Of a stretch of DNA of 64,000 nucleotides, positions 62,030-62,214 are shown piece by piece. The DNA comes from Escherichia coli (GTDB taxonomy: Bacteria > Pseudomonadota > Gammaproteobacteria > Enterobacterales > Enterobacteriaceae). The translations under genes and the position numbers were made by a program. The stretch lies in assembly GCF_036507355.1 (NCBI RefSeq), contig NZ_AP027877.1; one strand, written 5' to 3'. Under the pieces are notes generated by a model, which was given only the letters and a program-made list of their open reading frames with translations, did no database searches and was not told the origin of the DNA. Position 1 is the stretch's first letter. Each line of letters starts with the position of its first letter.

Positions 62030-62214
62030 GAGCTAATAGTAGGCATACGGACTTTTTGCGTCGATCAGATTCGTCTCATTAGTTTAAAAACTGTAAAGAA
62101 TTTGCGACAGGTACTACCAGCTGAATGGCGGTACGCAGGAAAATATGGGGAAGAGCAAGCAAATATCAATTAGCGGTGGTTAACAATCAGGCGGCAGAGC
62201 CGCCTGATGAGAAA

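Follow-up and report, generated by a model that had tools for sequence, protein, structure and literature searches.

The small RNA gene rprA of Escherichia coli K-12 has an RcsB-dependent promoter, PrprA (b4431), for which PMC5861431 and PMC7913699 both cite Majdalani et al. 2002. According to PMC5861431, rprA responds positively to RcsCDB and CpxAR, and LrhA acts as its repressor. RcsB of Salmonella Typhimurium, in phosphomimetic form, was crystallised on the –53 to –33 segment of PrprA, CTATTGAGACGAATCTGATCG (PMC7913699). The structure-derived consensus for the RcsB homodimer is TN(G/A)GAN4TC(T/C)NA, and recognition depends primarily on the AGA motifs that Lys180 reads in each of the two strands (PMC7913699). 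The osmC, osmB and ftsA1p promoters, as listed in PMC7913699, are likened to PrprA by that paper and by general knowledge, having the same consensus box upstream of a weak –35 element. Two further papers, PMC12388358 and PMC9262595, contain nothing on rprA promoter anatomy.

We analysed a 64,000-nt stretch of E. coli DNA (hereinafter designated the window), in which positions 62030..62214 correspond exactly to the 185-bp ydiK-rprA spacer, since the RprA 5' end lies at 62029 and the ydiK coding sequence occupies 62215..63327. We conclude, with a probability of roughly 0.93, that this is the normal ydiK-rprA region of E. coli/Shigella and that the known σ70, RcsB-activated rprA promoter makes up its proximal 54 bp in unaltered form. 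The features of the region are collected in Table 1. RcsB and its relay (rcsB/C/D/F) are encoded outside the window.

Table 1 Features of the rprA promoter region and its surroundings in the window. Promoter positions are relative to the transcription start; a slash marks the junction with IS1.
Feature	Window position	Strand	Basis and remarks
RprA sRNA gene	61922..62029	–	Full-length Rfam RF00034 match; 100% identity to K-12
Transcription start, A of ACGGUUAUAAAU...	62029	–	Rfam position 1 and MG1655 rprA annotation
–10 hexamer TACTAT	62041..62036	–	–12 to –7; canonical position, ortholog conservation
–35/–10 spacer, 17 nt	62058..62042	–	
–35 hexamer TCGACG (putative)	62064..62059	–	–35 to –30; 4/6 matches to TTGACA; abuts the RcsB box; assigned by position
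RcsB box TGAGACGAATCTGA	62078..62065	–	–49 to –36, centre –42.5; exact consensus match
AACTA, conserved	62080..62084	–	Separated by one base from the RcsB box, on its 5' side; inside the crystallised –53 to –33 DNA
Block AAATTCTTTAC, partly conserved	62103..62093	–	–74 to –64; profile of 77 distinct orthologous promoters
G+C-rich hairpin, 10 bp, AUCAGGCGGC-UCU-GCCGCCUGAU then UGUU	62186..62208	–	RNA fold
ydiK, 370 aa, upstream neighbour	62215..63327	–	ORF list; aligns to MG1655 ydiK b1688
RprA intrinsic terminator	stem 61951..61932, then T8	–	Terminator scan
IS1, 768 bp, insA/insB	61066..61833	+	Terminal inverted repeats GGTAATGACTCCAACTTATTGAT and GGTGATGCTGCCAACTTACTGAT (~23 bp), flanks
IS1 junctions in the window			AAGCTG/GGTAATGAC and CATCACC/CTGCTATTC
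ydiN remnant without its first 264 nt	60064..61065	–	BLAST vs MG1655

The sRNA gene fixes the frame of reference for the promoter. It scores 118.5 bits against the RF00034 covariance model, for which the gathering score is 70, and covers model positions 1-108. An earlier note on this DNA, made from the letters alone, had put the rprA start at about 62029 on the minus strand, which agrees both with the 5' end of the Rfam match and with MG1655, whose rprA is annotated as starting at 1770372, a base that pairwise alignment places at window position 62029. With +1 at this base, the –53 to –33 numbering of PMC7913699 falls exactly on 62082..62062.

Over the 185-bp spacer, the window and MG1655 differ at a single position, 62134 (–105), which is G here and T in K-12, and pairwise alignment reveals no differences from –104 through the RprA terminator. 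The substitution falls outside all conserved promoter elements and its allele is common in E. coli, many genomes (e.g. O145:H28) being 100% identical to the window over 409 bp. The RcsB box, –35, spacer, –10, start site and the neighbour ydiK are thus all the same as at K-12 PrprA, the window differing from K-12 in the substitution at –105 and, downstream, in the replacement of ydiL-ydiM and the ydiN 5' end by IS1. Of 5426 complete E. coli genomes, 5421-5423 contain the spacer, with an identity of 97.8-100%. The earlier claim that the promoter between ydiK and the sRNA is intact is therefore borne out, and the alignment to the characterised rprA promoter that the note had proposed as a check reveals an RcsB box that is present and unmutated relative to K-12.

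The RcsB box, which the note had expected upstream of the start, matches the consensus with 0 mismatches, contains both AGA motifs, and is the same as the K-12 and Salmonella sites. All 14 of its positions are shared with Salmonella, as are 22 of the 23 natural positions of the 23-mer in PMC7913699, and the window counterpart of the crystallised segment, CTAATGAGACGAATCTGATCG at 62082..62062, is the same as the Salmonella –53 to –33 DNA at 20/21 positions. The flanks CTA and TCG are shared and the numbering maps exactly; the one difference lies directly 5' of the box at –50, T in Salmonella and A in the window. Binding and a crystal structure are known for a Salmonella site with an identical box, and the box in the window is the predicted binding site of the RcsB homodimer. 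No Salmonella locus is among the at least 120 orthologous loci listed (see below), and the spacing was therefore verified in loci of Citrobacter and Enterobacter in which the Salmonella 21-mer occurs without change. Across the 64-kb window the RcsB consensus has 3 matches against 2.6 expected. Since the consensus by itself thus occurs at chance level, the case for the box rests on its position and on orthology.

Orthologous loci were fetched with the bait TGCTGTGTGTAGTCTTTGCC, which lies inside the sRNA and so introduces no bias toward the promoter, and at least 120 loci across Enterobacterales were obtained. Boxes were counted in the 116 loci with enough upstream DNA, 191 nt being examined in each, and in 362 control stretches of equal length located 1-1.5 kb away. 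Among the matches listed, an RcsB box lies upstream of rprA in 113/116 loci, compared with 0/362 controls, and 111/116 loci have exactly one. A profile anchored on the box in these 113 loci among the matches listed displays AACTA one base 5' of it, the GAC of the –35 element 3' of it and, further downstream, TGCC-TAnTAT; the commonest hexamer at the –35 offset is TCGACG (41/113 among the matches listed). In a MAFFT profile of the 77 distinct promoters among the matches listed, conservation peaks at –54 to –30, at –17 to –7 and around +1, is lower in a block at –74 to –64 and is slight farther upstream.

The orthologs also decide the position of the –10 element. The string quoted in the earlier note, aaactaatgagacgaatctgatcgacgcaaaaagtccgtatgcctactattagctc, is the minus strand from 62085 to 62030, and within it 'tattagct' (62038..62031, –9 to –2) had been taken as the –10 element. 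We reject this assignment: the octamer is too close to the start, and TANNNT occurs at its offset in 18/113 orthologs among the matches listed. At the offset of TACTAT, by comparison, TANNNT occurs in 110/113 orthologs among the matches listed, either 23 nt (99/113) or 24 nt (11/113) past the box, and TACTAT, which overlaps 'tattagct' by 3 nt, is therefore the true –10 element. A generic σ70 scan does not call the rprA promoter because its hexamers reach 8/12 matches and the threshold is 9; such a miss is expected of an activator-dependent promoter, though it is no positive evidence for one. The same scan offers a σ70-like TTGATA-N16/18-CATATT/TATTTT at 62169..62140, which we rejected as a promoter, the region being poorly conserved.

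Among the matches listed, three loci with an RprA core lack a box. Two are from Edwardsiella (E. ictaluri and E. hoshinae), in which no RcsB-box match occurs in the 191 nt upstream and the RNA also departs strongly in its 5' part. The Edwardsiella promoter may lie farther upstream, or the gene may be regulated differently in that genus. The third (L046) is a second RprA-family gene in Phytobacter massiliensis (RF00034, 77.8 bits), ~8 kb from the canonical rprA of L045, which keeps the RprA 3' half, differs in its 5' part and is preceded by no RcsB box. This gene (L046:1165-1284, +) and a C4 antisense RNA of the P1/P7 phage type (L046:583-671, –) are ~500 bp apart, and the gene may thus encode an RprA-like sRNA that is carried by a prophage and controlled differently. 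Citrobacter sp. MAG HRGM_Genome_0066 has a second copy of the RprA core 20-mer (L100) on a contig other than that of L101. The only RcsB-box match of this copy is at –92 (TTAGATTTATCTAA) and Rfam RprA has no match in L100 at the gathering score; this copy could be either a fragmentary gene or a paralogue that has diverged.

On the distal side of the spacer, the transcript of ydiK, annotated in matching E. coli genomes as an AI-2E family transporter, would form the hairpin listed in Table 1. It lies 7 nt 3' of the ydiK stop codon and has a folding energy of –18.2 kcal/mol (z = –3.7), with 0/200 shuffles equally stable. The generic terminator scan does not call it because it is poor in its U-tract. 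It is probably the ydiK terminator, and if so it would shield rprA from read-through. Other matches at the Rfam gathering level in the window are a Phe leader at 34565..34689 (+; 75 bits), the sRNA STnc540 at 38530..38688 (+; 67.4 bits) and ES036/CssrF at 13282..13324 (–; 42.9 bits).

Together with what is established about the Rcs phosphorelay and with PMC7913699, the layout of the promoter suggests the following course of activation. Envelope stress would lead to phosphorylation of RcsB, whose homodimer would bind the pseudo-palindrome TGAGA-cgaa-TCTGA, with its centre at –42.5, by insertion of two recognition helices. Bound next to the weak –35 element (TCGACG), RcsB would bring in RNA polymerase, for which the promoter, with a –10 of TACTAT and a 17-nt spacer, is poor by itself. 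Transcription with σ70 would then run from 62029 to the intrinsic terminator, giving an RprA of ~105-108 nt, an activator of rpoS translation. As far as the sequence tells, the promoter should be active and Rcs-responsive in the window strain.

The far side of the sRNA gene is rearranged by IS1, as the earlier note had said. In a BLAST comparison with MG1655 1762000..1782000, K-12 homology stops at 1770567 and resumes at 1772776, and the 2,208 bp in between (1770568..1772775) are replaced by IS1, with the loss of ydiL, ydiM and the first 264 nt of ydiN. The element, annotated as an IS1A family transposase in matching E. coli records, has ORFs of 91 and 167 aa on the plus strand, convergent with rprA. 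Between the RprA 3' end and the near end of the element are 88 bp, and the transcription start is ~195 bp away from it; the RprA terminator is intact. The IS1 flanks, AGCAAGCTG and CTGCTATTC, do not include an 8-9-bp target-site duplication. This, together with the 2,208 bp missing, argues against a simple insertion; an IS1-mediated adjacent deletion is indicated, and recombination between a pair of IS1 copies would fit as well. At 61838 in the rprA-IS1 spacer, 4 bp short of the IS1 junction, the minus strand has A where K-12 has G; this second substitution accounts for the lack of an exact K-12 match to the left flank. The note had called the promoter intact even though IS1 is nearby. The intactness stands, whereas the implied contrast does not: with IS1 ~195 bp off, beyond the whole gene and its terminator, an intact promoter is expected and needs no special explanation.

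The IS1-ydiN junction of the window occurs in none of the 5426 complete E. coli genomes. Three E. coli strains, MB50, NH-21 and MLI104K1, have an IS1 of 768 bp in the spacer and orientation seen in the window, with the promoter unchanged. IS1 begins 99 bp past RprA in MB50, 79 bp in NH-21 and 138 bp in MLI104K1, and the K-12 coordinate at which the deletion ends is 1772776 (ydiN) in the window, 1774435 (ydiB) in MB50 and 1771734 (ydiM) in NH-21. MLI104K1, unlike the window, has a simple IS1 insertion without deletion, flanked by the 9-bp duplication TACACGATG. The rprA-ydiL spacer has thus received at least 4 independent IS1 events, with all junctions differing and insAB convergent on rprA in all, and the deletions in 3 of the 4 are one-sided, running away from rprA. 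The window has a second IS1 copy at 15632..16399, 99.87% identical to the copy beside rprA, making two copies in 64 kb, and its last 20 kb are at most 99.0% identical to any of the 5426 complete E. coli genomes. The two copies and this level of identity suggest an IS1-rich lineage, possibly Shigella, that is missing from those genomes.

These events raise the question of whether the promoter was spared by selection on rprA during the IS1 rearrangement rather than by mere distance, which we consider improbable. The presence of rprA and its promoter in 5423/5426 genomes, and the four independent IS1 events that spare rprA while all three deletions extend away from it, are what selection would leave behind. 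The same pattern is inseparable from ascertainment bias, because the query contained rprA and deletions that removed it were irrecoverable; moreover, IS1 adjacent deletions extend from one end only, so that a single one-sided case needs no selection, and the promoter is some 195 bp from the IS1 end. Far less probable still is that the promoter sequence is intact while its function is altered, with antisense read-out from IS1 across rprA and its promoter lowering or modulating RprA through transcriptional interference or an RNA duplex. The geometry would allow it: insA/insB on the plus strand converge on rprA from 88 bp beyond its 3' end, the RprA terminator read in the plus direction has no T-run after its stem, and the terminator scan finds no terminator-like site on the plus strand in 61800..62400. 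With no plus-strand terminator between IS1 and rprA, antisense read-through onto RprA is possible in principle, and the three other strains share the orientation. However, nothing points to outward IS1 transcription, and transcription of the IS1 transposase is weak and auto-repressed by InsA. The shared orientation (4/4) has a chance probability of 1/8 and hence does not amount to a significant bias, and the arrangement is rare, IS1 lying within reach of rprA in 16/5426 complete E. coli genomes. We regard it as equally far-fetched that the rprA-ydiL spacer is a recurrent IS1 landing site from which antisense RNA across rprA rewires the strength of the Rcs-to-RpoS connection in IS1-bearing lineages.

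Somewhat less doubtful, but still unlikely, is that inputs beyond RcsB, such as CpxR activation or LrhA repression, act through the –74 to –64 block and the AACTA flank, which would leave the view of the promoter as an RcsB reporter incomplete. CpxAR induction and LrhA repression have been reported (PMC5861431), and AAATTCTTTAC at 62103..62093 is partly conserved. Since its TTTAC reads GTAAA on the plus strand, the block may hold half a binding site for a further regulator, CpxR for example, and it could be the place where CpxR or LrhA acts on rprA. The best match to the CpxR box GTAAA-N5-GTAAA is TTTAAAAACTGTAAA at 62083..62097 (+), whose GTAAA half is partly conserved and overlaps the block; yet it departs from the box at 2 positions, and matches of this quality are frequent and unspecific (84 in the window vs 58 expected). 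Such inputs would add to the RcsB explanation rather than replace it, and the bases concerned are the same in K-12.

The reading of the region as the normal, unaltered rprA promoter is therefore the one we retain. The rprA promoter as such is already known, and the observation that it is present here is correct but ordinary. What the analysis yields besides are a corrected –10 element (TACTAT), exact coordinates for each element and a quantitative phylogenetic footprint across Enterobacterales. In this IS1-rich genome of E. coli/Shigella type, the normal promoter is retained in the RprA arm of the Rcs envelope-stress response, which means little beyond annotation; because the promoter is normal, an rprA-based Rcs reporter should act here as it does in K-12.
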